Below are positions 5,054 through 51,663 of a stretch of DNA of 64,000 nucleotides, piece after piece. The translations under genes were made by a program, and so were the position numbers. Each line of letters begins with the position of its first letter. The first letter of the stretch is position 1. The DNA lies in contig JAHEKF010000007.1 in assembly GCA_024638465.1 (NCBI GenBank), positions 7,729 through 71,728 of the forward strand. The letters are read 5' to 3'. Below the pieces are notes generated by a model that saw only the letters and a program-made list of their open reading frames with translations, did not search any database and was not told where the DNA came from. The DNA is from Rhodospirillaceae bacterium. Lineage in GTDB: Bacteria > Pseudomonadota > Gammaproteobacteria > Steroidobacterales > Rariloculaceae.

Positions 5054-5559
5054 TTGACGGCTCGCGATAGGCGCTCGCTGCGCCCGGGATTATCTGCCCG
5101 CCGGCATGTTCTTGTTCGTGTTCAATTTCCGGCGCTGCCGCTGGCATCCTACAGCAACAGGGCATCCCGGGGGAGGGTTACGGGTTGATGAAAACCGGCT
5201 CTCCGGGCCGCCTGATACGCTGACCTTGCCGCGCCGGCAGAGTAGAATCGGAGCCTGAATAACAATAAGGGGGACGCGCGTGAGATTCACGATCGCTCCG
5301 ATGGCCATTGCCTGGCTCGCCTCCGGGATCGAGCGCTGCGAAGCCGAAGATCTCGACCTAAGTGCGCCGTCGCTCGAGGGAAAGTAGATGGCGGATACTT
5401 CCGCGCTGATTCGTTATCCCCGTGACATCGACGGCTTCTTCACGGCGATGATGCATTCGCGAGACCTGCTCTATTCGCCGCATTTGCCGACGATGCGTTT
5501 CGACTGTGACCCCGACGTTACGAGGCGCTTCGTGCCTTAACACGAATCGGGAAGCCAAG

Positions 5560-6630
5560 ATGATCTTCCGTCAGTTGTTCGATAGCGAGTCCTGGACTTT
5601 CACTTATCTGTTGGCGGATCCGGATTCGAGAGAAGCGCTGCTAATCGACACGGTTTTCGAAAAACACTTGCGGGATCTCGCCCTGGTTCGCGAGCTCGAT
5701 CTCGAGCTGAAGTACACCCTCGACACGCATGTCCATGCCGATCACGTGACGGGTGCATGGCTGATGCGCGGTGCTACGGGCTGCCGAATTGCCGTCGCGG
5801 CGGCTTCCGGAGCCGAAGGCGCCGATGTGTACATCGAGGACGGCGACGAGATCGGTGTCGGAACGGTCAGAGTCAGGGCGCGAGCCACCCCGGGCCATAC
5901 CGATGGCTGCATGACCTATGTGCTTGCCGACGAGTCGATGGCTTTCACCGGCGACGCATTATTGATTCGCGGTGCCGGCCGCACGGATTTCCAGGCCGGT
6001 GATGCGCGTCGTCTGTTCCATTCCGTCCGCGACAGAATTCTGAGTCTTCCGGATGACTGCGTACTTTATCCAGCGCACGACTACAGCGGCCGGACCTCGA
6101 CGACGGTTGCTGAGGAGCGTGCTCACAACCCGCGCCTGGGTGACGGCAAGCGCGAGGAAGATTTTGTTGGCTATATGGAGAATCTCGGTCTGCCGCATCC
6201 GAAAAAGATGCAGGCGGCGGTTCCGGCGAATCTTCAATGCGGCCGGCCCGGTGAGGGGGACGAAACTCCGGCCTTACCAGACTGGGGTCCGGTTATTCGA
6301 ACGTTCGCCGGCGTACTCGAAGTTGATCCCGAGTGGGTCCACAGTCATCGTGAAGACGTGGTGGTAATCGACGTCCGCGAGCAGGAAGAGATCGACGCGA
6401 CGCCACTCGGCTGCATCAGCGGCTCGCTCATGATTCCGCTGAGTAAACTTCGTGATCGAATGGACGAAGTGCCGAAGGACGGACCCGTCGTCACTATATG
6501 CCCCGCAGGTGCGCGGTCGGCGCAGGCGGCATTGATACTGGAGCAAGCAGGTTACCCGAAAGTCGCGAACCTACCCGGCGGTCTGTTCCGCTGGCAGGCG
6601 CTCGGCTTTCCGGTTGTACAGCCGGGGTGA
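5560..6630 (+). CDS. Persulfide (sulfur) dioxygenase, ETHE1-type MBL fold, fused to a C-terminal rhodanese domain
   Basis: HVHADHVTG (HxHxDH), TPGHTDGC, RTDFQ.GD, YPAHDY, then a rhodanese domain with the active-site loop CPAGARS. ATG at 5560 is preceded by GGGAAG. Confidence 0.85.
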   Translation: MIFRQLFDSESWTFTYLLADPDSREALLIDTVFEKHLRDLALVRELDLELKYTLDTHVHADHVTGAWLMRGATGCRIAVAAASGAEGADVYIEDGDEIGVGTVRVRARATPGHTDGCMTYVLADESMAFTGDALLIRGAGRTDFQAGDARRLFHSVRDRILSLPDDCVLYPAHDYSGRTSTTVAEERAHNPRLGDGKREEDFVGYMENLGLPHPKKMQAAVPANLQCGRPGEGDETPALPDWGPVIRTFAGVLEVDPEWVHSHREDVVVIDVREQEEIDATPLGCISGSLMIPLSKLRDRMDEVPKDGPVVTICPAGARSAQAALILEQAGYPKVANLPGGLFRWQALGFPVVQPG

Positions 6631-6644
6631 CTCGGGGAGAGCGA

Positions 6645-7565
6645 ATGAAAATTATTGAAGGCGTAGCAATCGTTATCGTTTCTTTAGCGATTGCGCGCGG
6701 TATTGCGGCCCAGCCAATAGAAGGCTCCGGCTTCGTCGTCGATTTCGACGCCGTTGAATTACGCATGACGCACGTTGCCGGCAACGTCTACGCATTGGCC
6801 GGTGCGGGCGGCACGATCGGGGTGTTTGTGAGCGACGATGCGGTGTTTCTCGTGGACGATCAGTTCGCCCCCCTGACCGAGCGGATTCGTGCCGAAATCG
6901 GGAAAGTTGGCGATGCGCCGGTGCGTTTTATCGTCAACACGCATTTCCACGAGGATCATACGAGCGGCAATGAAAACTTCAGCGAGGCCGGTACCGTTAT
7001 TGTCGCGCACGAGAACGTACGCAGAACGCTGGCGCAGCCGCACTATATTGAGATGATTCAAACGCGGTTCGCAGCTTTTGGCGCGAGCGCGCTGCCCATC
7101 GTGACATTTCAGGACTCGATGGCGTTCCATCTCGGCGGCGAGCGTATCGATGTCATTCATTCGCCGCCGGCGCATACCGACGGCGATTCCATGATCTTTT
7201 TCCGTGGGTCGAATGTCCTGCACATGGGCGACGTTTTCCGCTCGCGCGGCCAACCGATTTTTGACCGTAATAACGGCGGATCATACGAAGGCTTGATCGC
7301 TTCGGCCGATTTTGCGCTGAACCTGATCGGCGAGGACACGATGATTATTCCCGGACACGGTGTCGTCTCGACAAAAGCCGATCTGCGCCAGAGCCGGGAA
7401 ATTATGGCGACGATTCGCGATCGCATTCAGGCGGGTATCGACGCCGAGATGACTGTCGAGCAGGTTATCGCAACCGATCCAACCCGCGGTTTCGACTGGC
7501 GCGATGGGCGGCTGACGGTCGCCGACACCATTCGCTGGATCTACGCGGAACTCGCAGCAAAATAG
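6645..7565 (+). CDS. Secreted metallo-beta-lactamase-fold hydrolase
   Basis: Signal peptide MKIIEGVAIVIVSLAIARGIAAQ, then HFHEDHTSGN, AHTDGD and PGHG motifs. Confidence 0.8.
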   Translation: MKIIEGVAIVIVSLAIARGIAAQPIEGSGFVVDFDAVELRMTHVAGNVYALAGAGGTIGVFVSDDAVFLVDDQFAPLTERIRAEIGKVGDAPVRFIVNTHFHEDHTSGNENFSEAGTVIVAHENVRRTLAQPHYIEMIQTRFAAFGASALPIVTFQDSMAFHLGGERIDVIHSPPAHTDGDSMIFFRGSNVLHMGDVFRSRGQPIFDRNNGGSYEGLIASADFALNLIGEDTMIIPGHGVVSTKADLRQSREIMATIRDRIQAGIDAEMTVEQVIATDPTRGFDWRDGRLTVADTIRWIYAELAAK

Positions 7566-7583
7566 ACATTGCGGAGAACTACA

Positions 7584-8606
7584 GTGATAGAGCGCACGAT
7601 ACTCGTTTCTCTGATGATGATGCCGCTGACGTCAGCGGCGCAGGACAGCCCGTTCCTCGGGGAATGGCTGCTCCGTCTCGACCAGGACAATCGAATCGGT
7701 CGCTCGGCTTACGGCAGCCTCGTGTTCGAGCTCGGCACGGGCGGTCTGGAGGCTTATATCGATGGGGGATCGGTCAATGTCCTCGAAATCGACGGCACCC
7801 GGATCGTATTCGATTTCGACTGGTCGGATCTGCCCGATGCGCGGCATCTCAGTATCCTGGAAGGCGCACTCGCCAACGGCGTTATTACCGGCACGGCGAC
7901 AGAGAACGGTGAAGATCGGGGCGGTTGGCGCGCGATGCGCTCCGAGCGACGGGATACGGTCGGGTTAGCGCCGGAACCGGTCGATCTGACAGGTATCTGG
8001 AGTCGTCCCGCGATCCTGAGCAAGCATGAATTCGAGGTGACGGCAGCAGGGCGTGCAGCCGACGAACGCTATGATTCGACGATTGACGATCCCATCCTGC
8101 GTTGCGTTTCGGATGGCCTGATCCGAATGTCGCACGGGCCGTTCCATATCGAGGTTGTTTCGATGCCGAACAAAATCATCGTGCTGCACGAGGACTTGCA
8201 CGAGGTGCGGCGCATCTACACAGACGGGCGGGATTTTCCTGCGGATATCGAATATGCCAATCTCGCGATGGGCTTCTCGATCGGCCGCTGGGAAGGGTCG
8301 ACGCTCGTCGTCGAAAGTCGTGGCCTGAAACCGTCGGTCTGGGATGCCGCGGGTATGCCGATATCGTCCGACGCGGTTGTAACCGAGCGCTGGTATGTCG
8401 ACGACGCGGGGGAACTTCATGTCGAGTTTTCTCTCGATGATCCCGTCAACTATCATCGCCCGGTGGAGATGCACGGCGTCCGTTCGCCTCTGCCGCCCAG
8501 TACGTTAATTCCCGAATATTCCTGCGATCCACATGCGTTTTATCGTAGTCTGCAGCTGGAAGGCCGGCTCGACGAGTACTGGAGTCGCGGTGCCAACCGC
8601 TTATAG
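7584..8606 (+). CDS. Secreted protein: unique N-terminal region plus 'module C' of the repeated family
   Basis: Signal peptide ending SAAQD. Landmarks: LTGIW, LRCVSDG, MGFSIGRWEGSTLVVESRG, DDPVNYHRP, EYSCDP. GTG 7584 (GGAG 8 nt upstream) is preferred over TTG 7569. Confidence 0.6.
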   Translation: MIERTILVSLMMMPLTSAAQDSPFLGEWLLRLDQDNRIGRSAYGSLVFELGTGGLEAYIDGGSVNVLEIDGTRIVFDFDWSDLPDARHLSILEGALANGVITGTATENGEDRGGWRAMRSERRDTVGLAPEPVDLTGIWSRPAILSKHEFEVTAAGRAADERYDSTIDDPILRCVSDGLIRMSHGPFHIEVVSMPNKIIVLHEDLHEVRRIYTDGRDFPADIEYANLAMGFSIGRWEGSTLVVESRGLKPSVWDAAGMPISSDAVVTERWYVDDAGELHVEFSLDDPVNYHRPVEMHGVRSPLPPSTLIPEYSCDPHAFYRSLQLEGRLDEYWSRGANRL

Positions 8607-8621
8607 AGGAGGGGAAAAAAG

Positions 8622-8981
8622 ATGAAGAAATGGGTTTCCCTGGCCGTTGCGTCCGCAACCGCTCTGGTTGTCGCTCAATCGGCGACCGCGCATCATGCGC
8701 TCGCGGCCAATTACGACACGGACAACATCGGTACGATCGAAGGTGTCGTCGTGGAGGTCTTCTGGTCCAATCCGCACGTGCATTATTATATCGAGGTGGC
8801 GAACGCAGAAGGTGTCACGGAGCTATGGGATGTCGAAACATCGAATCTGGCTACCGTGATGCGATCGGGATGGACGAGAGAAACAGTTGAAGTCGGTGAT
8901 CGAATTCGCATCTCCGGGCAGCTCGGGCGTAACGGGATACATCGGCTGGCGCTCGACCGCGAGTCGCTCGAAGTGCTGTAG
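8622..8981 (+). CDS. Secreted 'module N' protein (I believe DUF6152-like), stand-alone
   Basis: AGGAGG ribosome-binding site. Signal peptide ...AQSATA|HHALA, then EGVVVEVFWSNPH, WDVE, GWTRE, GDRIRISG. Confidence 0.7.
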   Translation: MKKWVSLAVASATALVVAQSATAHHALAANYDTDNIGTIEGVVVEVFWSNPHVHYYIEVANAEGVTELWDVETSNLATVMRSGWTRETVEVGDRIRISGQLGRNGIHRLALDRESLEVL

Positions 8982-8996
8982 CCGGGGAGCTTGAAA

Positions 8997-9809
8997 ATGA
9001 ACGATTTCGGAAATAAGCGTGCAAGTGTCGCCGGCGCCGTAGTTGCGGTGATGCTGGCTTTTCATTGCTTGCCGTCGGTATCGCAGGAACAAGCGAGGCC
9101 CGACCTCAACGGTATCTGGAACGGTACGGTGACGTCGACTCAGCATCCGCTCTGGACCGTGGAGGAATTATTCCAGTGCAACTGTACGCCGGAGGCTTAC
9201 GAGTATCTCAATGAGCTGCTCTACAATCCGGCTTACGATCACATGTCTGCCGAAGACATTATCGACGAGGTTGCGCGCTTCAATAGCGAACAGATCGCCT
9301 CGCTCTTTACCGATGAGGCGCGCGCATACGCCGAGGCTTTCGATCATGCGAACGATCCCGCCATTCAATGCGAATATTTCGGTGCGTTTCGCACGATCAT
9401 GCATAACGATCCGATACTGATCGAGCAGACCGACGACCGAATCACGATCTATCCGGAGGACATGGCATCGGACCGTGTCATCTACATGGACGAGCGTCCT
9501 CATCCGGACGATATCCTGTCGCCGCTCGGGCACTCGATCGGTTGGTACGAGGGCAATACGCTCGTTATCGAGACCGTCGGTGTGAGCGCGGCGATCGCTG
9601 ACGACAACCTTTCCATTCACAACACCGACGGGGCGAGAAGCATCGAGCGGTACACGATCAGTGATGACGGTACCCATCTCGTCATGGATTTCACGATTTT
9701 CGATCCGAATACATTTATCGAACCGCTGACGCTGAGGCGTACGCGGATATTCACGCCCGACTGGACCATTGAAGATGCGCCCTGCGAGTCGATCTCCGGG
9801 CAACGTTAA
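8997..9809 (+). CDS. Secreted 'module C' protein, stand-alone
   Basis: Signal peptide, LNGIW, IQCEYFG, LGHSIGWYEGNTLVIETVG, FDPNTFIEP, APCES. ATG 8997 with GGGGAG upstream (TTG 8991 is an alternative). Confidence 0.6.
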   Translation: MNDFGNKRASVAGAVVAVMLAFHCLPSVSQEQARPDLNGIWNGTVTSTQHPLWTVEELFQCNCTPEAYEYLNELLYNPAYDHMSAEDIIDEVARFNSEQIASLFTDEARAYAEAFDHANDPAIQCEYFGAFRTIMHNDPILIEQTDDRITIYPEDMASDRVIYMDERPHPDDILSPLGHSIGWYEGNTLVIETVGVSAAIADDNLSIHNTDGARSIERYTISDDGTHLVMDFTIFDPNTFIEPLTLRRTRIFTPDWTIEDAPCESISGQR

Positions 9810-9822
9810 AGGAGGTAGAGCG

Positions 9823-10275
9823 ATGACCATCAGAACAGTCTTGTACTTCGCGATTCCGGCTCTCGCTGCGGGCGCGACGATCGCGCATCACAATCCCAAC
9901 GCGCATTACATCGTCGGCCAAAGCATCGAGATCGATGGTGTCGTAACGGAGTTTCGCGGCGTCAATCCGCACTCGCGAATCTATTTCGAGTCCACGAACG
10001 ACGCAGGGGAGACCGAGGAGTGGATGGCCGAAGGCGACAGCATTATTAATCTGCGACGCGCCGGCTGGGCCGATGACGAGATTCAGCCGGGTGACCGGAT
10101 CCATATTCAGGGCCGGCCGTCCCGGCACGGCCGCAACCTCGTCGAGTGGCAGATCATCACGCGCCTGGACGGTGCGGAACTCGGCGGCGGTAACGGCCAG
10201 CAGACCGAGCGCTATCGCTATATGGATGAGAGACTCGCCGAGTTTCGGCGCCAGCGCGACGCCGGCGGGCGATGA
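9823..10275 (+). CDS. Secreted 'module N' protein, stand-alone
   Basis: AAAGGAGG ribosome-binding site. ...AGATIA|HHNPN, DGVVTEFRGVNPH, WMAE, GWADD, GDRIHIQG. Confidence 0.7.
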   Translation: MTIRTVLYFAIPALAAGATIAHHNPNAHYIVGQSIEIDGVVTEFRGVNPHSRIYFESTNDAGETEEWMAEGDSIINLRRAGWADDEIQPGDRIHIQGRPSRHGRNLVEWQIITRLDGAELGGGNGQQTERYRYMDERLAEFRRQRDAGGR

Positions 10276-11367
10276 ATGCCGCTTCGCGAGTGCATTCCGG
10301 GCGACTTTCACAAGAGACTTCACGTGAGACTGCGTAATGTCGCTTTGGTCGCGTTGTTGCTGGCGTCGCCGGGTTTCGGTCACCATAGCGATGCGGGTCT
10401 CGATATGGACTCGACCGTGGTACTGGAGGGCACGGTTCTCGAATACAACTTCCGCAACCCGCACGTCTATATCATCGTCGCAGTGGCAGACGACACGGGC
10501 GACACGGTCGAGTGGGAGCTGCAAACGAGCTCAACGATAACGGTCATGCGAATGGGCTGGACACGCGACTCGCTCGCAGCCGGTGACGATGTGACATTCT
10601 CCGTGCATGCGGCATTCGATGGTCGACCCTATGGTCTGCTCAATACGATTCAAAAAGCCGATGGCGAAATTCTGGCGACCTCCTTTTACGACACTTCGGG
10701 CGAGCCGCGAATCGAGAGCCCCGTGGCGCTTCAGAGCGCAAGCTCTCTGGAGGGCAAGTGGATCGCGGACGGTGACAAACTCGTCGACTATCCGGGCGGT
10801 TTCGACGGATTTTTTCGCGCGCAGCTCACGCTCAACGACAAAGCGCTCGCGGCGCAGGCAGCCTACAACGAGCTCTCCAGCGAAAATCCGAATGCAACAT
10901 GCGTCGGCCGCCCGACGCCAGCGCTCATCGTCAATACGCTGCTTTACCCACTCGAGATCGAGTATCTCGATGATGGCGACATCGTTGCTATTCGCAGCGA
11001 ATTCTTCGACGAGGAGCGCTTCGTGTACATGGATGGTCGCGACCATCCGTCTGGCAGTGATCGATTCGATCTCGGCCATTCGATTGGTCGTTGGGAGGGT
11101 GATGTACTGGTCGTCGATACGCGAAATTTCGCGGATCACCGTTCACCGTATCAAACAGGTGTGCCTTCCGGGGGTGAGAAGCACGTGGTCGAACGCTTCG
11201 AGCTCAGCGACGACGGTACGCGAATATTCGTCGAGTTCATGCTGGAGGATCCTGAGTATCTTGTTGGTTCGATGACGCATCGTCGCGAGCTCATTTACGT
11301 TCCGGATCACGAGATGGTCGAGTTCGACTGCGATATAGAAGCGACGTCGCGCTTCGTTACGGAGTAG
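10276..11367 (+). CDS. Secreted fusion of module N and module C
   Basis: ...SPGFG|HHSDA, EGTVLEYNFRNPH, WELQ, GWTRD; then LEGKW, ATCVGRP, LGHSIGRWEGDVLVVDTRN, EDPEYL, EFDCD. The start abuts the previous stop (alternative GTG at 10324). Confidence 0.7.
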   Translation: MPLRECIPGDFHKRLHVRLRNVALVALLLASPGFGHHSDAGLDMDSTVVLEGTVLEYNFRNPHVYIIVAVADDTGDTVEWELQTSSTITVMRMGWTRDSLAAGDDVTFSVHAAFDGRPYGLLNTIQKADGEILATSFYDTSGEPRIESPVALQSASSLEGKWIADGDKLVDYPGGFDGFFRAQLTLNDKALAAQAAYNELSSENPNATCVGRPTPALIVNTLLYPLEIEYLDDGDIVAIRSEFFDEERFVYMDGRDHPSGSDRFDLGHSIGRWEGDVLVVDTRNFADHRSPYQTGVPSGGEKHVVERFELSDDGTRIFVEFMLEDPEYLVGSMTHRRELIYVPDHEMVEFDCDIEATSRFVTE

Positions 11368-11382
11368 TCGCCGGTCCGTCGA

Positions 11383-11391
11383 GGGGGGGGG
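11383..11391 (+). repeat. Homopolymeric G9 tract forming the ribosome-binding region 2 nt upstream of the ATG at 11394
   Basis: Read directly from the sequence: gag-ggggggggg-at-ATG. Confidence 0.9.
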
Positions 11392-11393
11392 AT

Positions 11394-12422
11394 ATGCAAC
11401 GCAGCCTGGGCCTTACGATCGTGCTTTCGTTGCCGGCAATGGCAACGGCGCATCATTCACGTTCTCATTATCCTGAAGTCATCGAGGAGGTCACTGGCGA
11501 ACTCGTCGCCGTCCATTGGGTCAATCCGCATGTCGGTTTCGAGATCGACGTTATCGACGACGCCGGCCAGACGGAGCGTTGGCGCATCGAAGGCATATCG
11601 AACCTCGGTAACATGCGACGCGGCGGCGTCGGCAGCGAGATCTTTAACATCGGTGAGCAGGTGACCTTTGCGGGGAGCGTATCTGTACGCCGTGAGCGCG
11701 ACATGCTCGCGTCGAACGTCTTGCTGGAGAACGGCACCGAGGTCGTCCTTGGGCAAAACGAACCATTGCGTTGGACCGCTGGTAACGTGGAGTTGAAGCC
11801 GCAACCAACGGGGACCAACTCTATGGTCGATGCGCTCGCCGAGAATCGCGGGCTGTGGCGCGTCTGGAGCAATGTTCCGGATGGCGTCGGGCAGCGTACG
11901 GATTTTCGCTTCTCGCAAGCGGCCATCGACGCGCGCGCGGAGTGGAACGAGATAGATAACTACGCCGAGCGCTGCGTTGATGAGGGAATGCCGCGCATCA
12001 TGCGCAATCCGCATCCGTTCGAGTTCATCGACAACGGCGATGAGATCGAAATCGTTTCCGAGCTCTACGATCTCACTCGCTTCGTACACATGGGTCAGGA
12101 TGAGCCGCCCGCCGGCACGGAACCGTCCCTGCTCGGCTATTCAGTTGGCCGCTGGGAAGATGAGACGCTCGTGGTTACGACATCGCTCATCAGCTGGCCC
12201 TACTTCGACAATATTGGTACGCCACAGTCGGACAACGCCTGGATGGTCGAGGAATTCACGGTCAGCGAAGATCAGGCGCGGCTGGACTACCGCTTCACGT
12301 TCAACGATCCGGTTTACTTCGCTGAGCCCGCCGTCTACGAAAGATACTGGCTTGCGCTTGGCGACGAGATCGAAGTCTACGACTGCCAGGTGTTCGGCGA
12401 GTCCGTCTCCGGGCTCGAATGA
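11394..12422 (+). CDS. Secreted fusion of module N and module C
   Basis: ...AMATA|HHSRS, GELVAVHWVNPH, WRIE; then RGLWRVW, ERCVDEG, LGYSVGRWEDETLVVTTS, NDPVYFAEP, VYDCQ. Confidence 0.7.
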   Translation: MQRSLGLTIVLSLPAMATAHHSRSHYPEVIEEVTGELVAVHWVNPHVGFEIDVIDDAGQTERWRIEGISNLGNMRRGGVGSEIFNIGEQVTFAGSVSVRRERDMLASNVLLENGTEVVLGQNEPLRWTAGNVELKPQPTGTNSMVDALAENRGLWRVWSNVPDGVGQRTDFRFSQAAIDARAEWNEIDNYAERCVDEGMPRIMRNPHPFEFIDNGDEIEIVSELYDLTRFVHMGQDEPPAGTEPSLLGYSVGRWEDETLVVTTSLISWPYFDNIGTPQSDNAWMVEEFTVSEDQARLDYRFTFNDPVYFAEPAVYERYWLALGDEIEVYDCQVFGESVSGLE

Positions 12423-12459
12423 GGCGCTTGCCCGTTCTTGCCAATGCCCGGATCGACGG

Positions 12460-13179
12460 TTGACGGCTGTCAGGGTCACGCCGCGTAGTCGCTGGCAGCG
12501 CTGGGTGCACACGCCCCGGGCGCTGCCGTTTCGAAGGATGCTCTACCAGATCCACTTGTGGGTCGGCATCGGAATCGGCCTCTACATCGTTTTTATCAGC
12601 GTAACCGGGAGCGCCGTCGTATTTCGACGCGAATTCGGACGTTGGTTCATCACGGAAGACAACAGCTTTCCCTGGCAGGTCCGGACCATGGAATGGTTCG
12701 TGGATCTTCATGACAATCTTCTTGCGGGCGCGCTCGGTCGTGACATCAATGGTGTCTTCGCGATCCTCTGCCTTGTGCTCGTGCTGACGGGCGCGATCAT
12801 CTGGTGGCCCGGACGAAAACGCTGGCGTCGCAGCATCGTGCCCTCCCGACCGTCGACGACGCACCGATTCTCCTGGCATCTGCACAGCGCGATCGGCTTG
12901 TGGGCTTACGTGCTTTTGTTCGGCTGGGCGTTTACCGGAATCTACTTCGCGTTCCCCGAGCCGTTCGAGTGGTTCTTCAATAACTTCGACTCGGACCCTA
13001 CCGACTTCGAGCGGCCGGGCGAGAGCGTGCTGCTTGCGCTCATCCGCTGGCACTTCGGTCGCTTCGGCGGACTCGAGATCCGGATACTGTGGGTAATACT
13101 CGGATTAATTCCGGCCGCACTGTTTATCACGGGCTTTATCGTGTGGTGGAAGCGCGTGGTTAGCGAGCACTGGCGGTAA
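12460..13179 (+). CDS. PepSY-associated TM-helix (PepSY_TM) membrane protein, short form
   Basis: RRMLYQIHLWVGIGIGLYIVFISVTGSAVVFRREF is the typical PepSY_TM opening. Four predicted TM segments carry His residues (HLW, DLHDN, WHLHSAIGLW, RWHFGRFGG). Possible starts are TTG 12460, GTG 12505 or ATG 12538. The track start at 11977 is an overlap artefact. Confidence 0.7.
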   Translation: MTAVRVTPRSRWQRWVHTPRALPFRRMLYQIHLWVGIGIGLYIVFISVTGSAVVFRREFGRWFITEDNSFPWQVRTMEWFVDLHDNLLAGALGRDINGVFAILCLVLVLTGAIIWWPGRKRWRRSIVPSRPSTTHRFSWHLHSAIGLWAYVLLFGWAFTGIYFAFPEPFEWFFNNFDSDPTDFERPGESVLLALIRWHFGRFGGLEIRILWVILGLIPAALFITGFIVWWKRVVSEHWR

Positions 13180-13216: not shown

Positions 13217-13963
13217 ATGTATCGTGCCGCCGTGGATACAGTCTCGCTGCCTGATTGGCCTGCAAAGGCCGCCCTGTTTCTCGACGTCGACGGCACACTG
13301 CTCGAGTTTGCGGACAAACCGCACCTCGTCGAGCGCCCACCGCGTTTCCTCGCTTTGCTGGAGCGTCTCCACGGCGAAATTCCCGTCGCTTTCATCAGCG
13401 GCCGGTCGATCGACGATCTCGATCGAATTCTTGCGCCGCATCGTTTTCCGCTCGCCGGTATCCACGGTGCCGAGAGACGAAATCACGCGGGCGAGCGTTC
13501 GCTGGCGGAATCGAATCCCGACGCACTGAAGGACGCGCGAGCGGTCATCGACGCGTTTCATTCGAAGCACGACGGACTCGTTCTCGAAGACAAGGCAGTA
13601 GGGTTGGCGCTGCATTTCCGCCTCCGACCCGATCTCGAGGATGACGTTCACGCGCTGGAGCGGCGACTCGACGAGATGCTGCCCTCGGGCTACGGTGTCA
13701 TGCGCGGCAAGATGCTGATCGAGGTCTACACGAGCAGTGTCGACAAGGGCACCGCGATTCGCGAATTTATGGACGAGGAGCCGTTCGCAGGTGCTACGCC
13801 GGTCTTCATCGGTGACGATGTCACCGATGAAGCGGGGTTTGTCGTGGTTAACGAGTTGGGCGGGATCTCCATAAAGGTGAACGACGGTGATACCGTAGCG
13901 CAGTCGCGGCTGCCCGACGTCAGTGCGGTCATCGGATGGCTCGAGCAGGTGCTCCCCGGTTAA
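13217..13963 (+). CDS. otsB: Trehalose-6-phosphate phosphatase
   Basis: HAD motif FLDVDGTLLEF, SGR, and GDDVTDE near the C-terminus. It lies in a cluster with otsA. Confidence 0.85.
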   Translation: MYRAAVDTVSLPDWPAKAALFLDVDGTLLEFADKPHLVERPPRFLALLERLHGEIPVAFISGRSIDDLDRILAPHRFPLAGIHGAERRNHAGERSLAESNPDALKDARAVIDAFHSKHDGLVLEDKAVGLALHFRLRPDLEDDVHALERRLDEMLPSGYGVMRGKMLIEVYTSSVDKGTAIREFMDEEPFAGATPVFIGDDVTDEAGFVVVNELGGISIKVNDGDTVAQSRLPDVSAVIGWLEQVLPG

Positions 13964-13976
13964 TCAGGAACAGAAA

Positions 13977-15770
13977 GTGTCAAATCTCGAATTGGGTGTT
14001 ATAGGCAATTGCCAGATCGCGGTCCTCGTCGATCAGATGGGACGTTATGTCTGGGGTTCGTTCCCGCGTATGGACAGCGATCCGTTCTTTTGCACGCTAC
14101 TGGATCCGAAACAGCAGGACGGTCCTATCGGCTGCTTCGAGATCGAACTCCTGAATTTCGAATCCGCCGAACAGCGTTACGTCGAGAATACCGCAATACT
14201 CGAGACTATCTTGCGTGACGATCGCGGCGGTGTACTGAAGATCGTCGATTTCGCGCCGCGCTATAACCTGTTCGGGCGCAGCTTCCACCCGATCATGACG
14301 ATACGAAACATCATTCCGGCTGCGGGAAGTCCCGTGGTCCGCATCAAGCTGCGCCCGGCCGCGAATTATGGTTCCCGCCCCACGACCCAAACCTACGGCA
14401 GTAACCACGTTCGCTTCGAGAACGGCGATTACACACTGCGATTAACTACCAACGTACCAATCTCGACGGTCCTCGACGGCAGCTCGTTCATCGTCGAGCA
14501 TTCGATGGCGCTGATACTCGGTCCGGACGAGTCGGTGCCCGACGACCCCGTCAAAACCTGTCGCGAGATGTATGGCGAGACTAAGAATTACTGGCAAGGG
14601 TGGAGTCGCGCATTGTCGATTCCGTTCGAATGGCAGCGTGAAGTCATACGGGCGGCTATTACGCTAAAGCTCTGCACCTTCGAAGACACGGGGGCGGTCC
14701 TCGCAGCGCACACGACGTCGGTGCCCGAAGCGGCGAACAGCGGGCGCAACTGGGATTATCGATACTGCTGGCTTCGCGACAGCTATTACACGGTGCAGGC
14801 ACTGAACCGGCTCGGTGCTACGCGAACGATGAAAGAGTTCCTCCGCTACCTGTTCAATCTCATCGCCGAGTTCGACAATGACGAGGAGCAGTTGCAGCCC
14901 GTCTACGGGATCTCGGGCCTTGCCGAGCTGACCGAGTCCCAGGTAGACAGTCTTGCGGGATACCGCGGCATGGGTCCGGTTCGCATCGGCAACGATGCCT
15001 ATCGCCAGGTGCAGAACGACGTCTATGGTGCAGTCGTTCTCGCGTCGACGCAGAGCTTTTTCGACAAGCGCCTGGTGGAGTACGGCAGCGCAGAGGAATT
15101 TTCGCGACTGGAAAAACTCGGCGAGCAGGCAGCGCAACTTTATGACCAGCCTGATGCGGGTATCTGGGAGTTCCGAGGTCGCGAGGCAGTCCACACCTAT
15201 TCGAGCATCATGTGCTGGGCCGCCTGCGACCGGCTGGCACGAATTGCGACGGAGCTCGGGATTGACGCTCGTGCCGACCACTGGTCGGGTACCGCGAACC
15301 GTATTCGGGAAACGATAATAGAGAGAGCATGGAGCGAAGACCGCAAATGCTTCGTTTCGAGCTTCGGCGGCAACGATCTCGATGCGAGCCTGCTCATTAT
15401 GACTGACGTCGGTTTCATCGGTCCGCAGGATCCGCGTTTCCTCGCGACGCTCGACGCGATAGAAAAGGAGCTGAAACAGGGCCCTTATATGTTCCGCTAC
15501 AACAATGCGGACGATTTCGGATTGCCGGAGACCGCATTCAACGTCTGCACATTCTGGTACATCAACGCGCTGGCGGCTGTTGGACGGCGCGAAGAGGCAA
15601 GAGAGCTTTTCGAGAATATGCTCGCTCGACGCAATTCCCTCGGGCTTCTGTCGGAAGATCTCGATCCGAAGACTGGTGAACTCTGGGGCAATTTCCCACA
15701 AACCTACAGCATGGTGGGTATTATCATGGGCGCTATGCGTCTAAGTAGATCCTGGGAGGAGGCTTTGTGA
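13977..15770 (+). CDS. Glycoside hydrolase family 15 (glucoamylase/trehalase-like)
   Basis: LELGVIGNCQIAVLVD N-terminus, SVPEAANSGRNWDYRYCWLRD and FPQTYSMVG motifs typical of bacterial GH15. GTG 13977 chosen as the start. Confidence 0.85.
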   Translation: MSNLELGVIGNCQIAVLVDQMGRYVWGSFPRMDSDPFFCTLLDPKQQDGPIGCFEIELLNFESAEQRYVENTAILETILRDDRGGVLKIVDFAPRYNLFGRSFHPIMTIRNIIPAAGSPVVRIKLRPAANYGSRPTTQTYGSNHVRFENGDYTLRLTTNVPISTVLDGSSFIVEHSMALILGPDESVPDDPVKTCREMYGETKNYWQGWSRALSIPFEWQREVIRAAITLKLCTFEDTGAVLAAHTTSVPEAANSGRNWDYRYCWLRDSYYTVQALNRLGATRTMKEFLRYLFNLIAEFDNDEEQLQPVYGISGLAELTESQVDSLAGYRGMGPVRIGNDAYRQVQNDVYGAVVLASTQSFFDKRLVEYGSAEEFSRLEKLGEQAAQLYDQPDAGIWEFRGREAVHTYSSIMCWAACDRLARIATELGIDARADHWSGTANRIRETIIERAWSEDRKCFVSSFGGNDLDASLLIMTDVGFIGPQDPRFLATLDAIEKELKQGPYMFRYNNADDFGLPETAFNVCTFWYINALAAVGRREEARELFENMLARRNSLGLLSEDLDPKTGELWGNFPQTYSMVGIIMGAMRLSRSWEEAL

Positions 15771-17203
15771 GCCGAATTGTCGCGATATCGAACCGCGTCG
15801 CGATACCAACCAGTGGAAAGTCGGCCGGAGGATTGGCCGTGGGCGTGCTCGCTGCGCTCAAAGAACGCGGCGGCGTATGGTTCGGATGGAGCGGCAAGAC
15901 AACCGGAAGTGAGCCTCGAGACCCGGAAGTAAAGACGATCGATAACATCGACTTCGTCACGATAGATCTGAACCGTCAAGACTTCGCGGGCTACTACAAC
16001 GGCTTCAGTAACAACTCGCTATGGCCGTTGTTACATTTTATGGTGGGCTACTTTACGTTTAGCAGGTCGCACTATCAGGCCTACCGACGCGTTAACGAGT
16101 TCTTCGCGCGCAAGCTGATGTCGGTGATTCAGCCCGACGATCTGATCTGGGTGCACGACTATCACCTGTTTCCATTGGGTGCGGAGCTGCGGCGAGCCGG
16201 GGTGGATCAGCCGATCGGCTTCTTCTTGCACGTGCCCTTCCCTAGTTTCGATGTGTTGCGTGTCCTGCCTGGTTATCGAGCTGTATTGAGTGAGCTGGCA
16301 GCCTACGACGTGGTTGGCTTCCAGACCGCGCGGGATCTGTGGGCGTTCCATGACTGTGTGACTCAGCCGGAGATCGGCGGAGGAATCGCGAAGGATGGTC
16401 GAGTAACTGCATTCGGCAGGACGTTTCAGGCCAAGGTTTTTCCGATTGGTATCGACGTCGACGATTGCGCATCTGCGGCCGAGAAATTCTCTAACAACAC
16501 ACAACTGCACCAGCTCGCGAGCAGTCTCGAGGACAGGAAGCTGATTGTCGGAATCGATCGTCTGGATTACAGCAAGGGTCTGGCCTTACGATTCCGCGGA
16601 TTCGAATCGCTACTCGAAAACTATCCGTCCACGCGCGGCAAAGTCACCTATATGCAGATTGCCCCGCCAACGCGCGCGGGCGTTCGTACCTATGACGACA
16701 TACGAGAAGGCCTGGAAAGGACGGCCGGCAACATCAACGGGCGCTTCGCGGAGATGGATTGGGTCCCGATCCGCTATCTGAACCGAGGCTATCGGCGGGA
16801 ACTGGTCATGGCGATTCTGAGGCTGGCGTCTGTCGGGCTTGTGACACCGATTCGCGACGGCATGAACCTGGTGGCGAAAGAATTCGTCGCAAGCCAGGAT
16901 CCCGAAGATCCGGGGATGCTCGTATTGTCGACCCTGGCTGGTGCTGCGTACGAGCTTCAGGACGCCGTTCTCGTCAACCCGTACGATCGACAGAGTGTCG
17001 CTGACGGTCTGCAGATTGCCATCGAGATGCCGCTCGATGAACGGCAAGAGCGCCATCGTTCAATGATGGAGATATTGCGGCGTAACGACATTCATGCCTG
17101 GAGCCGGGGTTTTGTCGAGGCGCTTCAAACCGACCCTCTCACCGCGAGCGGCTCATTGGCCATTCCAAATCCTCATACGCTGGTATCCGGGATCGACGAC
17201 TAG
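15767..17203 (+). CDS. otsA: Alpha,alpha-trehalose-phosphate synthase (GT20)
   Basis: SNRV...GGLA, WFGWSG, LWPLLH, WVHDYHL, DRLDYSKG and DGMNLVAKEF motifs. The GTG start overlaps the GH15 stop (GTGA). Confidence 0.9.
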   Translation: MSRIVAISNRVAIPTSGKSAGGLAVGVLAALKERGGVWFGWSGKTTGSEPRDPEVKTIDNIDFVTIDLNRQDFAGYYNGFSNNSLWPLLHFMVGYFTFSRSHYQAYRRVNEFFARKLMSVIQPDDLIWVHDYHLFPLGAELRRAGVDQPIGFFLHVPFPSFDVLRVLPGYRAVLSELAAYDVVGFQTARDLWAFHDCVTQPEIGGGIAKDGRVTAFGRTFQAKVFPIGIDVDDCASAAEKFSNNTQLHQLASSLEDRKLIVGIDRLDYSKGLALRFRGFESLLENYPSTRGKVTYMQIAPPTRAGVRTYDDIREGLERTAGNINGRFAEMDWVPIRYLNRGYRRELVMAILRLASVGLVTPIRDGMNLVAKEFVASQDPEDPGMLVLSTLAGAAYELQDAVLVNPYDRQSVADGLQIAIEMPLDERQERHRSMMEILRRNDIHAWSRGFVEALQTDPLTASGSLAIPNPHTLVSGIDD

Positions 17204-23495: not shown

Positions 23496-23768
23496 CGCCG
23501 TTATCCGCACCGTGTCACAGATTAAACTTTCTTTAAGACGGAACGTTTCCATCTCAAGGTAATCTCTGATTAAATCTCGCCTCGGCGGCGAGCCCCGTCT
23601 GCGTGGGACGACAATGACGGCAAGGGCGCAATAGCCGCCCGCCGAGATCGGAGATACTCCGATCGGGAGCTCATTCAGGGCGAACCCGTCGTGTTCGACG
23701 GGCCGGCACGACCTCATACGGCCTCTGAAACCGGATGTAGCAATACTGTGGCTGAGCAGACAGATAAT

Positions 23769-25970
23769 GTGAAGAAACAGCTCTCCCGCGCCATCGGGCT
23801 TGGCGTCGCGTTGTGTTGTGGAATAGCAGCCGCTCAGTCGCCGCTGAGTCCTGATCTCGTCCAGCGAAAGATCAGCGAAATCGCCCGGACCTCGACACCA
23901 CCGGTGCTCGACGGCGTTCTCGACGACGCGGCCTGGGCTCAGGCGACGGTCATCGAGGACCTGCACCAGTACGATCCCGTCGATCACGGCGAGCCGACTG
24001 AAGAATCGACTTTCTATTTGCTCTTCGATGACGAGAACATCTATATCGGCGCCCGTCTTCTCGATAGCAATATCGAGCAAATCGATGCGCGGCAGCTGAT
24101 CCAGGATCAATCGGTCGGCGTCGACGACCGCATCGAGATCGTCATCGACCCGTTCAACAACATGCGCACCGGGTACAAGTTTCAGATCAATCCAAACGGA
24201 ATCCGCCGCGACGGAATTTACGAAGGTCCGACGAATGTCAATGAAGACTGGGACGGTATCTGGGCGGCCGAAGCGAAAATCGACGACGAGGGTTGGAGCG
24301 GTGAGATCGCGATACCGTTCAAGACCCTGAACTTCGATCCGGGTAATCCGGACTGGGGCTTCACGGTGGGCCGCGTTATTCCCCGGCGCAACGAGAAGAT
24401 CGCCTGGACCTCATTCAATCGCGACATCAACCCGAGTGCGGCAGGTATCCTGACCGGGTTCTGGGATTTGCAGCAGGGTCTCGGACTCGACGTCGTGCCC
24501 TCTTTGGTGGTTGGAAGCAACCGGGACCATGTGACATCCGTCGACGATTCGTTTTCGGAGCCCTCGCTCGATGCTCGCTATAACTTCACGCCATCGTTGA
24601 CGGGCGTACTGACGCTCAACACCGATTTCTCAGCGACGGAAGTCGACGATCGTCAGGTCAATCTGTCGCGTTTCTCGAACTTCTTTCCCGAAAAGCGTGT
24701 CTTTTTCCTACAGGATGCGGACATCTTCGGCTTCGGGCTCAAGGGAACGGATAACAATAACCGTAACGGTATGCCGTTCTTCTCGCGGCGTATCGGCCTC
24801 AGCGATCGCGGGCAGCCCGTCGATCTGGAGACTGGCGTCAAGGTCACTGGCAGGGCCGGGCGTTTCAATATCGGCGTATTGGGTGTTGCGCAGGGCGGTT
24901 TCGAAGGAAGGAACGGGCCTGTCGATCCGTCCGATCTCTTCGTCGGCCGAATCTCCGCTAACGTGCTCGCAGAATCCAGTGTCGGCATGATCGTGACCGA
25001 CGGCGATCCGCGCTCGAATGTGGGCAATTCGCTCGCCGGTGCGGATTTTCGTTATCGAAACTCGCGACTCCCGTCAGGCCGAATCATCGAAGGAGCGCTG
25101 TGGTTTCAGCAGTCCGACACGGAAGGCGTCGACAGTGACCAGTCCGCCTGGGGATTCCGCTTCGCGACGCCTTCGCAGGACGGTTTCTACGGGACCGCGG
25201 AATATGAGGTCTTCGAGGCCAACTTCAATCCTGCGCTGGGTTTCCTGAACCGCGAGAACGTCGAGCGAAAACGCATCTGGGGTGGTTACCGCTGGCGGCC
25301 GATGGGACATCCCTGGATGCGAACCTACCAGACGTTCGTGTCGTTTCAGGATTTCACGGACAATACGACCGGTGACGTGCAGACGCAGAACGTATTCATC
25401 AGGCCATTTCGCGTGCAGAATCATCGCGGCGACCAGTACGGATTCCTGTTCAGGCACGAACGCGAAGTATTAACTCAGCCGTTCGAGATTTCGGATGGGG
25501 TGGTGATCGCGCCCGGCGACTATTCGTTCAGCGGTTATCGCGCAGAGCTGGAGCTCTCGGGCGAACGCGTCTTCGCTCCGACCATCGAAATCACGAAAGG
25601 CGAGTTCTACGACGGTGACTGGGTTCAGATCGAGAGTTCGTTCGACTGGCGCCCGAGCAGTCGCTGGTTCCTGGGCCTCGGCTATCAATACACGGATGCG
25701 GAGTTGCCAGCGGGTGACTTCACGACGCGGTTGATTCAGTTTCGCGCGAACCTGGCGTTCAACGCGCGCTGGTCCTGGGTGAATCTGATCCAGTACGACA
25801 ATGTGTCGGGTACTGCGGGAATAAATAGCCGGCTTCGATGGAACCCCAGGGCCGGTGAGAACCTCTATATAGTGATGAACCATGAATCCGAGGCGATGGC
25901 CGCGTTTTCCGGACTGGATTCCCGCGCGTCCCAGTTCTCGGTCAAGTACAGTAAGACGTTCCGATTCTAG
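23769..25970 (+). CDS. Large secreted/outer-membrane protein, CBM9-like N-terminal domain plus DUF5916-like barrel
   Basis: Signal peptide VKKQLSRAIGLGVALCCGIAAAQS. LDGVLDDAAWAQA...YLLFDDENIYIGARL...DDRIEIVIDPFNN. Ends KYSKTFRF (aromatic C-terminus). GTG 23769 chosen as the start. Confidence 0.65.
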   Translation: MKKQLSRAIGLGVALCCGIAAAQSPLSPDLVQRKISEIARTSTPPVLDGVLDDAAWAQATVIEDLHQYDPVDHGEPTEESTFYLLFDDENIYIGARLLDSNIEQIDARQLIQDQSVGVDDRIEIVIDPFNNMRTGYKFQINPNGIRRDGIYEGPTNVNEDWDGIWAAEAKIDDEGWSGEIAIPFKTLNFDPGNPDWGFTVGRVIPRRNEKIAWTSFNRDINPSAAGILTGFWDLQQGLGLDVVPSLVVGSNRDHVTSVDDSFSEPSLDARYNFTPSLTGVLTLNTDFSATEVDDRQVNLSRFSNFFPEKRVFFLQDADIFGFGLKGTDNNNRNGMPFFSRRIGLSDRGQPVDLETGVKVTGRAGRFNIGVLGVAQGGFEGRNGPVDPSDLFVGRISANVLAESSVGMIVTDGDPRSNVGNSLAGADFRYRNSRLPSGRIIEGALWFQQSDTEGVDSDQSAWGFRFATPSQDGFYGTAEYEVFEANFNPALGFLNRENVERKRIWGGYRWRPMGHPWMRTYQTFVSFQDFTDNTTGDVQTQNVFIRPFRVQNHRGDQYGFLFRHEREVLTQPFEISDGVVIAPGDYSFSGYRAELELSGERVFAPTIEITKGEFYDGDWVQIESSFDWRPSSRWFLGLGYQYTDAELPAGDFTTRLIQFRANLAFNARWSWVNLIQYDNVSGTAGINSRLRWNPRAGENLYIVMNHESEAMAAFSGLDSRASQFSVKYSKTFRF

Positions 25971-50203: not shown

Positions 50204-50250
50204 TCTAAGTTATACAGTGCGCGACTGCTTGCGCGGTGAGGTGGTGCATC

Positions 50251-50748
50251 ATGGCTAACATTGCAACGGTACTCGGGAGTTTCATCGCCCTGGCGGGCTT
50301 AATGAGCTCAGGTCTGGCCACGGCCCAGAATGGCGAAATCGACGTCGATGACGCTGCCGCTGCAATCGACGATATCGATCGCGAGCCGGAGCGCTGTATT
50401 CGCGTTGGTGGCATCGACGAGACCCATATCGTTGACGATCAAACGATCCTCTTCTATATGCGCCAGGATGTGGTTTACCAGAATGTATTGCGTCGAGAGT
50501 GCCCGGGACTCAAGCGCGAAGACCGGTTTTCTTACGAGACCCTCGGCGGCAATCTGTGTCTTACGGATGCCGTTACTGTCCTGCGGACTTTCGCCGGCGG
50601 TCTGGAACCCGGACGGACCTGTGGTCTGGGTCCGTTCGTCAGAATCAGCGAGGAGGAAGCCGACCTCCTGCGTTACGGCGAGCGACCGCTGGTAAGCGAC
50701 GAGCCCGTAGAGGTACCTCAGGACGAAGAGGTACCTCAGGACGAATAG
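50251..50748 (+). CDS. Hypothetical secreted protein with a C-terminal tandem EVPQDE repeat
   Basis: Signal peptide ...SSGLATAQ with conserved-looking Cys residues (ERCIRV, RECPGL, NLCLTD, RTCGLG). An 18-nt unit is repeated twice at 50710-50745. GTG 50236 is an alternative start. Confidence 0.5.
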   Translation: MANIATVLGSFIALAGLMSSGLATAQNGEIDVDDAAAAIDDIDREPERCIRVGGIDETHIVDDQTILFYMRQDVVYQNVLRRECPGLKREDRFSYETLGGNLCLTDAVTVLRTFAGGLEPGRTCGLGPFVRISEEEADLLRYGERPLVSDEPVEVPQDEEVPQDE

Positions 50749-50866
50749 GACACCGACCAGACAACCCGGTAGGAAGAGAGCGCCACGGAGTTTGGCGCTT
50801 GATGATTCGGAGTTACGGATCGAGAGCACGGACAGCTCTTACGACGTCTGGCTGCAGGGATTGCGG

Positions 50867-51451
50867 TTAGGCGTCGGCCTTTCCCTCATCGGGAAACTCT
50901 CCCTCCGTCGCTACCAGCATGCGGTTTGCGGTTTCGCCTTCCGAGAACAGAATCTGTCGCATCGCTCCGGCGACGTGAATCAGGAATACGACGAACAGCA
51001 CTTTCGCGAACGCGACGTGGGCCGCGTTGAAGAACGCCGCCGCGTTTTCGTTTGCAGTGAACGGGCCCGCGATTTCGCCGAAGTCGAAGAGCGCGATCGC
51101 ATCGCCGGCCAGCCAGACCTGCATGGGTCCGGTGAAGAGCATCACGAGAATCGAGAACAGCAAAACGAAGTGAACGACGCGCGCAGTCCTGAGCAGCGCG
51201 TCCTTCTGCCCGGCGGAGCGAGCGGGAAAGCCGATCTGCAGCCGGCGAAACACGCGGTAGAGCAGCAGCAGATAGACGGCAACCGCGACGGAGGTATGCA
51301 CTTTAAGCAGCATCGCCGCTTCCTCCGGCAGCGTGTCTTCGGCCGTCATCTGATTGCCGACGAACCAGAGCATGACGACGGCGATCGCCGCCGCCCAGTG
51401 GAGCGCGATCGAAAGCCAGCCGTAACCGGCACGGGCGTCGTGTATTTGCAC
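50867..51451 (-). CDS. Cytochrome b561 family membrane di-haem protein
   Basis: GYGWLSIALHW...KVHTSVAVAVYLLL...VHFVLL...AHVAFAKVLFVVFLIHVAGA: four TM segments with the conserved His pattern. Confidence 0.8.
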   Translation of the reverse strand: MQIHDARAGYGWLSIALHWAAAIAVVMLWFVGNQMTAEDTLPEEAAMLLKVHTSVAVAVYLLLLYRVFRRLQIGFPARSAGQKDALLRTARVVHFVLLFSILVMLFTGPMQVWLAGDAIALFDFGEIAGPFTANENAAAFFNAAHVAFAKVLFVVFLIHVAGAMRQILFSEGETANRMLVATEGEFPDEGKADA

Positions 51452-51663
51452 AGGTCAGGCCGCCGTGTCGCCAAAACTCGATTCGCGTCCAATTATCCGC
51501 GCGGTCTCAGGCAGCAACAACCAGCATTTCGCTCCTTCAGAAAAGTTCAGGCGCGGATGCTAAATCCCGGTTATTTCGTACGTGTTTCTCGTGATATCGT
51601 CAACCGAAACGGAACGGAGCCGTTGGATCCGAGAGGCAGGGACGGGACAGCGAGGAGGTTGCA

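Follow-up and report, generated by a model that had tools for sequence, protein, structure and literature searches.

A His-His pair at the predicted mature N-terminus of DUF6152 proteins: a candidate metal site on an OB-fold with a partner barrel

Why would seven exported proteins encoded in one stretch of DNA all be predicted to begin, once their leaders have been removed, with the same two histidines? This question is raised by a window of 64,000 nucleotides, by which we mean the whole stretch that was analysed, from contig JAHEKF010000007.1 (positions 7,729 to 71,728) of a sediment metagenome. The seven proteins belong to the family DUF6152 (PF19649), in which the His-His pair (HH) and a more distal Pro-His (PH) are conserved almost without exception. 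As the best explanation, we propose that DUF6152 is an oligonucleotide/oligosaccharide-binding (OB) fold domain that carries a metal site built on its N-terminal His and that acts together with a partner barrel. To this proposal as a whole we assign a probability of about one half.

Histidines behind the leaders of DUF6152 proteins

All seven open reading frames (ORFs) exceeded the Pfam gathering threshold of 27 bits for PF19649, with scores of 37.5-90.7 bits and E-values of 2.6e-9 to 6.8e-26, and the DUF6152 annotation is also carried by their homologues. Besides DUF6152, the Pfam scan of the seven copies returned weak OB-clan matches only, and no NCBIfam model matched them. A six-frame search with a hidden Markov model (HMM) found exactly seven copies in the window, all on the + strand, so that both the number and the gene starts given in the first-pass annotation of this DNA were borne out. 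Hereafter, the DUF6152 domain is referred to as the N-module, and its second, partner barrel domain as the C-module. The seven genes are the following (aa, amino acids; RBS, ribosome-binding site):

8622-8981, + strand: stand-alone N-module, 119 aa (PF19649, E 1e-22); GGAGG-type RBS upstream; leader 8622-8690, HH codons 8691-8696, NPH 8769-8777, invariant Trp at aa 69
9823-10275, + strand: stand-alone N-module, 150 aa (PF19649, E 3e-20); RBS aaggagg upstream; leader 9823-9885, HH 9886-9891, NPH 9964-9972
10276-11367, + strand: fusion of N-module and C-module, 363 aa; HH 10381-10386, NPH 10456-10464, C-module from ~10660
11394-12422, + strand: fusion of N-module and C-module, 342 aa; HH 11451-11456, NPH 11523-11531, C-module from ~11760
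51664-52071, + strand: stand-alone N-module of a divergent subfamily, 135 aa (PF19649, E 2.6e-9); HH 51730-51735, RPH 51811-51819, Arg/Gly-rich C-terminal tail
56915-57889, + strand: fusion of N-module and C-module, 324 aa (PF19649, E 7e-26); HH 56975-56980, NPH 57050-57058, C-module from ~57281
59672-60766, + strand: fusion of N-module and C-module, 364 aa; HH 59750-59755, NPH 59828-59836, C-module from ~60071

GGAGG-like ribosome-binding sites were found upstream of most of these seven genes. The gene at 10276 is the exception, and its start codon is uncertain: the leader would be 35 aa long, there is no RBS, and the ATG abuts the stop codon of the upstream gene (TGA, 10275/10276). This suggests translational coupling or a different start.

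The signal-peptidase site had been placed directly before His-His in every copy, and the sequences agree with this letter for letter. In gene order, the junctions read SATA/HHALA, ATIA/HHNPN, GFG/HHSDA, ATA/HHSRS, AQA/HHSWG, VFA/HHSDA and ANA/HHGFA, each behind a Sec-type leader with a (-3,-1) site. The third His, which had been placed at mature positions 27-30, was found there in all seven copies (positions 29, 29, 28, 27, 30, 28 and 29), within NPH in six of them and within RPH in the 51664 copy. Cleavage was judged by the (-3,-1) rule, and the N-terminus is to be read as a predicted one. Among 340 non-redundant sequences, 99% satisfied the rule at the HH junction, as compared to 7-51% at upstream offsets. 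In 334 sequences, residue -1 was A (235), G (80), S (18) or T (1), and residue -3 was A (204), V (68), T (24), L (13), S (11), G (10), I (3) or P (1). The leaders had a median length of 22 residues, 99.7% of them had a hydrophobic core over the Kyte-Doolittle threshold, and the n-region was net positive in 90%. Cleavage before HH is therefore the canonical reading of these leaders, with HH as the predicted mature N-terminus. Export by the Tat pathway was considered in view of an RR in two leaders, and it was rejected as this RR is not conserved in the subfamily alignment.

The seven paralogues have diverged considerably (28-42% identity to the 8622 copy), and the only columns invariant across them are H24, H25, P51, H52, G64, W69, R81 and G92. 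In an alignment of 57 fusion homologues (21-88% identity), which had been retrieved largely via their C-terminal halves, the only invariant columns are H21, H22, P47, H48, W65, G79 and G88. Among clusters formed at 50% identity, a profile of the seven copies matched 15,622 representatives with E<=1e-3, 8,390 of which had E<=1e-10. About 144 of the best 150 representatives have a leader, a small residue, HH, and the PH His at mature positions 27-29. Two of the 150 have His1 without His2 (A/HN and A/HQ), and in another two the start had been mis-called and the leader-HH arrangement is the same. One match at the top of this search, the 4832-aa protein P0067, was treated as a spurious repeat, as it consists of 30 partial matches to profile positions 80-119 and has no HH. 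Likewise, one homologue bears the JGI label 'predicted extracellular nuclease', which was treated as an OB-fold artefact since no nuclease domain was present.

The profile of the seven copies itself contains HH, and its list of representatives is therefore biased toward HH. For this reason, we built an HH-free core HMM that comprises only the barrel from mature residue 7 on, and we applied it to stop-to-stop ORFs from 87 sources (~970 kb). HH and PH were present in register in 190 of 203 distinct domains. The exceptions are accounted for by truncation at locus ends, pseudogene-like sequences, internal second domains, or one subfamily (WA/HHGW...GAAHD) in which the distal His is kept and the Pro is lost. 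HH and PH are also invariant across 16 members of the 51664 subfamily, which in addition has an Arg/Gly-rich insertion and C-terminal tail (GRGRRGRGR-like) that are odd for an exported protein. The HH/PH pattern thus reflects conservation and not chance. The three histidines first singled out from the window copies hold in the alignments of homologues, and practically all members of this very large family have a His at +1 after the signal-peptidase site (His1 conservation of ~97-100% in the samples examined here).

Domain order, the partner barrel and the predicted fold

Of the C-modules in the window, four follow an N-module within a fusion, and two are encoded by separate genes, each with a leader:

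7569-8606, + strand: stand-alone C-module, 345 aa, own leader; directly upstream of the 8622 N-module gene; matched by the C-module HMM
8991-9809, + strand: stand-alone C-module, 272 aa, own leader; directly upstream of the 9823 N-module gene

The product of the 7569-8606 gene aligns with the C-terminal halves of the fusions. The C-module spans ~200-235 aa in fusions, the stand-alone genes being longer, and its invariant residues are a Cys pair, E, R, GxSxG, E, D and DP. It had no Pfam match even at E<5, no sequence match in the PDB, and no profile relation to the YceI domain in hhalign comparisons. A YceI-like lipocalin domain (PF04264, E 3e-39) is itself fused to DUF6152 in one protein, P0077 (locus L099:724-1680). 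In this protein, YceI represents a second barrel partner that is unrelated to the C-module in sequence, and the ORF upstream of the fusion does not encode a cytochrome b561.

A census over 84 non-redundant sources yielded 121 stand-alone N-modules, 113 stand-alone C-modules and 80 fusions; the counts of fusions and pairs given here are not phylogenetically independent. A C gene was located on the same strand within 600 bp of 78 of the 121 stand-alone N genes, and split neighbours occurred in both orders (C before N in 46 pairs, N before C in 34). The fusions, in contrast, had the N-module first in all cases, namely in 80 of 80 ORFs and in 141 of 141 database proteins, and the DUF6152 domain was never found behind another domain in the N/C fusions examined. 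The finding that fusions are N-first only while split genes occur in both orders points to a constraint on the free N-terminus, and it argues that the N-terminus of the N-module must stay free. A C-module is in all cases found with DUF6152, be it in a fusion or in an adjacent gene, and the pairing is obligatory.

Two DUF6152 domains in tandem were found in seven proteins (P0068, P0070, P0071, P0072, P0089, P0090 and P0137), and their internal domain is degenerate. Some of the internal second domains lack HH and some lack both motifs. In four tandem proteins the internal HH is kept and NPH is replaced by NPR, KPR, GGR or nothing, the His being replaced by Arg in P0089 (NPR), P0090 (GGR) and P0070 (KPR). 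An Arg at this position could be a metal-mimicking or anion-binding substitution. The full set of HH and PH is retained only in the tandem domain that carries the N-terminus. Since the internal second domains are degenerate, the barrel folds without the HH and PH residues.

An AlphaFold2 (AF2) model of the 8622 protein had a mean predicted local distance difference test (pLDDT) score of 90.8 and consisted of a barrel of five strands, in which a short helix separates strands 3 and 4. In Foldseek searches, this model matched generic OB-folds (single-stranded DNA-binding protein, the anticodon-binding domain of lysyl-tRNA synthetase, and PriB) with E ~3e-4 and template-modelling (TM) scores of ~0.5; the N-module has no sequence homologue in the PDB. 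The DUF6152 domain is thus confidently predicted to be an OB-fold, and in the model the NPH position lies in the turn between strands 1 and 2. For the full-length 56915 fusion, a two-domain model was obtained (pLDDT 91.8, predicted TM score 0.84), the C-module of which showed a weak fold similarity to the calycin barrels of the FABP, CRABP and SAHS types (target-normalised TM ~0.6, E ~2e-3).

Direct-coupling analysis was performed on 496 unique mature domains (effective number 277). As invariant columns gave artefactual scores only, the analysis bears indirectly on the proximity of the histidines. The strand ladders of an OB-fold were recovered (1-2, 2-3, 1-4 and 4-5). In the N-terminal arm, the coupling Y8-E49 ranked 4 of 4278 in the pseudolikelihood analysis and 2 in the mean-field analysis, where it exceeded every column shuffle. 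The coupling N7-H31 ranked 7 in the mean-field analysis, again above every shuffle. H31 follows the NPH His at a distance of two residues on the same face of the strand, and the AF2 model contains a beta-bridge at the same Tyr of the arm (Y8). Taken together, the Y8 and N7 couplings and the AF2 bridge indicate that the arm is anchored beside the start of strand 2, at 6-7 residues after His1. It is therefore plausible that His1 and His2 are close to the NPH His in space.

Gene neighbourhoods in the window and in related loci

The first four N-module genes belong to an apparent nine-gene operon at 5506-13179, which encodes in order a metallo-beta-lactamase-fold (MBL) protein with rhodanese, a periplasmic MBL protein, C, N, C, N, NC, NC and a PepSY_TM protein. 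The gaps between the C- and N-module genes amount to 0-26 bp. Two further neighbours of N-module genes are:

12538-13179, + strand: PepSY_TM membrane protein at the end of the operon (PF03929, E 8e-37); real start ~12538
50867-51451, - strand: cytochrome b561 gene (PF01292, E 3e-17), divergent from the 51664 N-module gene

The PepSY_TM protein could possibly serve as a membrane redox partner. ORFs of the PepSY_TM type formed a neighbour cluster in only five of the related loci. The divergent b561 gene recurs in the loci of homologues that are 60-64% identical to the 51664 protein, that is, in close relatives only. In this subfamily, the gene order thioredoxin - DUF6491 - cytochrome b561 (divergent) - DUF6152 is shared by the window (50236-52071) and the loci L090-L092, L096 and L097. 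Together with the YceI fusion, the b561 neighbour gives a hint of hydrophobic-ligand or redox chemistry. Between the 56915 and 59672 fusions lies a pair that resembles SorAB and consists of a sulfite-oxidase-like molybdoenzyme (57886-59148) together with a cytochrome c (59135-59659); this arrangement was not seen in the other related loci. The PepSY_TM, sulfite-dehydrogenase and cytochrome c neighbours of the window are not general across the related loci.

The related loci are mostly metagenome-assembled genomes labelled Candidatus Rariloculaceae or Gammaproteobacteria; other labels are Rhodospirillaceae, Acidobacteriota (Vicinamibacterales, Bryobacteraceae, Terriglobia) and Dehalococcoidia/Chloroflexota. 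The distant representatives P0076, P0087, P0119, P0140 and P0077 are each located on contigs of less than 2 kb. What recurs in the related loci is the N/C superfamily itself, which accounted for 260 of the 937 ORFs with a length of 100 aa or more (28%). When these 937 ORFs were clustered, no other family was present in more than 11 of 82 related loci. Several types of neighbours were recurrent but inconsistent among 96 sources, namely MBL hydrolases (19), pyrroloquinoline quinone dehydrogenases (15), sulfatases (13) and cupins (7). Paralogue expansion was observed in L001, L018, L019, L020, L060 and other loci, with up to nine N-module hits in 12 kb, and the Rariloculaceae chromosome OZ241971.1 contains 20 N-module hits in five loci.

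Two further gene groups were seen in the window. A trehalose cluster (13217-17203), the genes of which overlap at their ends, encodes a trehalose-phosphatase (13217-13963), a GH15 glycoside hydrolase (13923-15770) and a GT20 trehalose-6-phosphate synthase (15767-17203). Two DUF5916 paralogues (23691-25970, 759 aa; 26865-29135, 756 aa), one of which also has a CBM9-like domain, are located downstream of genes for a sodium:solute symporter and an alginate-export-type porin.

The candidate metal site, its alternatives and known systems

Time and again, an N-terminal His behind a leader has turned out to form a metal site, irrespective of the fold (PMC10952591; PMC12537917). In the mechanism that we favour for DUF6152, signal peptidase I would cut the Sec leader and thereby expose His1-His2. 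The free amino terminus and the imidazole of His1, together with His2 and/or the NPH His, would then serve as metal ligands, and the invariant Trp would lie close by. The leading candidate for the metal is copper, held in a histidine-brace-like geometry, while Ni or Zn and a facial N3 arrangement would also be possible. The DUF6152 domain would act together with the disulfide-containing, calycin-like barrel, fused or adjacent, and this barrel probably holds a small hydrophobic molecule. The pairing of DUF6152 with a ligand-type barrel would thus make up an extracytoplasmic metal-dependent protein that binds or transforms such ligands, and the strong local clustering of paralogues points to diversified specificities.

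The first-pass annotation had compared the site to a histidine brace. The signature at His1, the distal His, the Trp, the N-first fusions and the couplings of the N-terminal arm all agree with this comparison, whereas the OB-fold and the lack of a copper-homeostasis family among the neighbour families identified do not. What stands, as judged from the sequences, is a well-motivated candidate for an N-terminal-His metal site, of which the copper histidine brace is one possible geometry. With respect to other N-terminal metal-binding motifs, the sequences fit an N-terminal Xaa-His Cu(II)/Ni(II) motif, with His2 present in ~144 of the best 150 representatives and in 7 of the 7 window copies. They do not fit the amino-terminal Cu(II)- and Ni(II)-binding (ATCUN) motif, NH2-X-X-His, because mature position 3 is a small residue (S 229, A 80, G 17, N 7 and V 1 in 334 sequences).

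Several observations weigh against the proposed metal site and its partner. DUF6152 is an OB-barrel, while the known brace families have Ig-, FnIII- or cupredoxin-like beta-sandwich folds and none has an OB-fold. No copper-, nickel- or zinc-homeostasis family was found among the neighbour families identified. A second (-3,-1)-compatible site lies five residues downstream, after HHSxA, in 86% of the 340 sequences. The AF2 models included the leader, and the local pLDDT around HH was only ~70-80. The role suggested for the barrel in binding hydrophobic ligands derives from the weak fold similarity mentioned above. Lastly, the HH kept in the internal domain of four tandem proteins has no free amine to use, which speaks mildly against the amine being strictly required.

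A more specific version of the proposal, which we regard as quite doubtful, is that DUF6152 is an OB-fold copper-brace oxidoreductase with a barrel partner, analogous to lytic polysaccharide monooxygenases (LPMOs) and particulate methane monooxygenase (pMMO), and that it oxidises hydrophobic molecules with O2 or H2O2. The substrates held in the calycin barrel would be lipids, isoprenoids, sterol or alkyl sulfates, or hydrocarbons, the electrons would be supplied by membrane proteins, for example cytochrome b561 or PepSY_TM, and the multi-copy genes would have diversified in Rariloculaceae-like sediment and marine bacteria.

The alternatives differ in which part of the proposal they replace. 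With a metal bound by the same residues, DUF6152 might be a metal-capture or trafficking protein, comparable to CopC, YcnI, DUF4198 or the 'anglerases', and not part of an enzyme; or the site might bind Zn, Ni or Fe by imidazoles only, without the amine. We consider this unlikely. It is in line with the fact that most characterised bacterial N-terminal-His proteins are binders or transporters with little catalysis (PMC10952591; PMC12537917), and with the preference of DUF4198 for Ni in a facial N3 site (PMC12537917). However, no metal transporter, regulator or homeostasis family was identified among the neighbours, up to nine N-module hits in 12 kb and a 28% share of superfamily ORFs would be unusual for a chaperone, and the obligatory pairing with a ligand-type barrel would be left unexplained. 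Three invariant histidines would suffice for a Zn or Ni site made of imidazoles only, and some internal second domains do keep HH, but such a site would require neither the strict +1 position nor the N-first order of the fusions. It is also unlikely, and more so, that no metal is involved and that the amino terminus, the three histidines and the Trp form, with the barrel, a site for binding or acid-base catalysis, its ligand being an organic molecule or an anion (for example a sulfate ester, a quinone, a lipid head group or a tetrapyrrole). The nearby sulfatases (13 of 96 sources) and MBL-fold hydrolases (19 of 96), the calycin-type partner, and the replacement of the NPH His by Arg with HH kept in tandem second domains, which fits anion binding or a metal mimic, would all suit such a role. 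Yet none of the neighbour families recurs with enough consistency to suggest a ligand, and invariant multi-His clusters at +1 were metal sites in every solved case cited (PMC10952591; PMC12537917).

The two remaining alternatives concern the N-terminus itself. If cleavage took place elsewhere, for example after HHSxA, the motif would serve export, processing or internal structure, and the mature protein would not start with HH. The +5 site present in 86% of the sequences, to which the small residue at mature position 3 (S/A/G/N) contributes, is compatible with this idea. Nevertheless, we consider it very unlikely: use of the +5 site would mean an unusually long polar c-region, while the HH junction fits the rule in 99% of sequences with a leader of the usual 19-24 aa, and the N-first rule of the fusions points to the N-terminus itself. 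Moreover, we know of no precedent for two invariant residues inside a leader that is discarded. Even less probable is a purely structural function, in which the conserved residues would cap the barrel and anchor the arm without any ligand. Pro, Gly and Trp, which are among the invariant columns, are typical structural residues, and the co-evolution data are consistent with an arm that packs on the barrel; but three solvent-type histidines are rarely invariant for packing alone, and the internal second domains fold without these residues, which are thus not needed for the fold.

N-terminal-His centres form the basis of LPMOs, of the brace site in pMMO and of copper trafficking in bacteria, and a deliberate search for further classes is under way (PMC12537917). 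If the proposed metal site is correct, DUF6152 would add a very large family (>15,000 clusters at 50% identity) and the first N-terminal-His metal site on an OB-fold, and it would bring with it an obligatory ligand-type partner domain for which Pfam has no model. It would also provide a lead on the role of the expanded gene clusters in uncultured Rariloculaceae-like bacteria. No paper on DUF6152/PF19649, on an OB-fold histidine brace or on Rariloculus was found in the literature searched.

In a histidine brace, the N-terminal His chelates Cu through its NH2 group and its pi-N, and another His contributes its tau-N; brace proteins of every class carry a leader, the removal of which unmasks the amine (PMC10952591). 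In DUF6152, His2 and the NPH His, both invariant, would be the candidates for the second His that completes such a T-shaped N3 site. Like the brace proteins (LPMOs of AA9-17, CopC, the PmoB site of pMMO, X325/Bim1, PmoF, and the 'mono-His brace' proteins YcnI and Ang-1), DUF6152 is secreted or periplasmic with a predicted cleavage before His1, and it has a sequence-distant conserved His and a conserved aromatic residue that could adjoin the metal. In the brace families that the cited literature describes, on the other hand, His2 is not a characteristic residue, and His at position 2 makes a site of the Xaa-His type also possible. Neither in Pfam nor in the PDB did the DUF6152 sequences match LPMO, CopC, YcnI or PmoB. 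As neither the scaffold nor homology places it among the known brace families, we do not class DUF6152 as a member of them.

CusF, a Cu(I)/Ag(I) chaperone with His-Met-Met ligands and a capping Trp, and CcmE, a haem chaperone, are known examples of small OB-fold domains in the periplasm that bear a metal or metal cofactor. DUF6152 resembles them as a small periplasmic OB-fold domain. Unlike CusF, it has no invariant Met, and its putative site would be built from the N-terminus. Neither CusF nor CcmE gave a Pfam or PDB sequence match to DUF6152 or appeared among the top 50 Foldseek hits. A likeness in gene context exists to BcnA, a YceI-family lipocalin, and LcoA, a cytochrome b561, which form a periplasmic pair that detoxifies lipid peroxyl radicals (PMC9113575): DUF6152 is fused to YceI once, is located beside b561 in one subfamily, and is paired with a calycin-like barrel. 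However, the BcnA/LcoA system has no DUF6152 domain, and the C-module has no detectable sequence relation to YceI.

A close parallel is found in a 2025 search for leader-His proteins ('signal strapping'), which followed the same reasoning as the first-pass annotation and validated metal binding, whatever the fold, for DUF4198 (Ni, facial N3), DUF6702, Ang-1 and Ang-2 (Cu, mono-His brace); N-terminal-His proteins solved in recent work took up Ni no less readily than Cu (PMC12537917). Neither the paper nor its supplements mention DUF6152. Like these four, it is a functionally uncharacterised bacterial family in which a leader precedes His1, while it differs from them in its fold and in its obligatory barrel partner and has no Pfam match to them. 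His1 is conserved in 79% of DUF4198, 65% of DUF6702, and 100% of Ang-1 as well as of Ang-2 sequences (PMC12537917). With ~97-100% in the samples examined here, conservation in DUF6152 exceeds that in DUF6702 and DUF4198 (65-79%), and its signature is thus cleaner than that of several validated N-terminal-His families.

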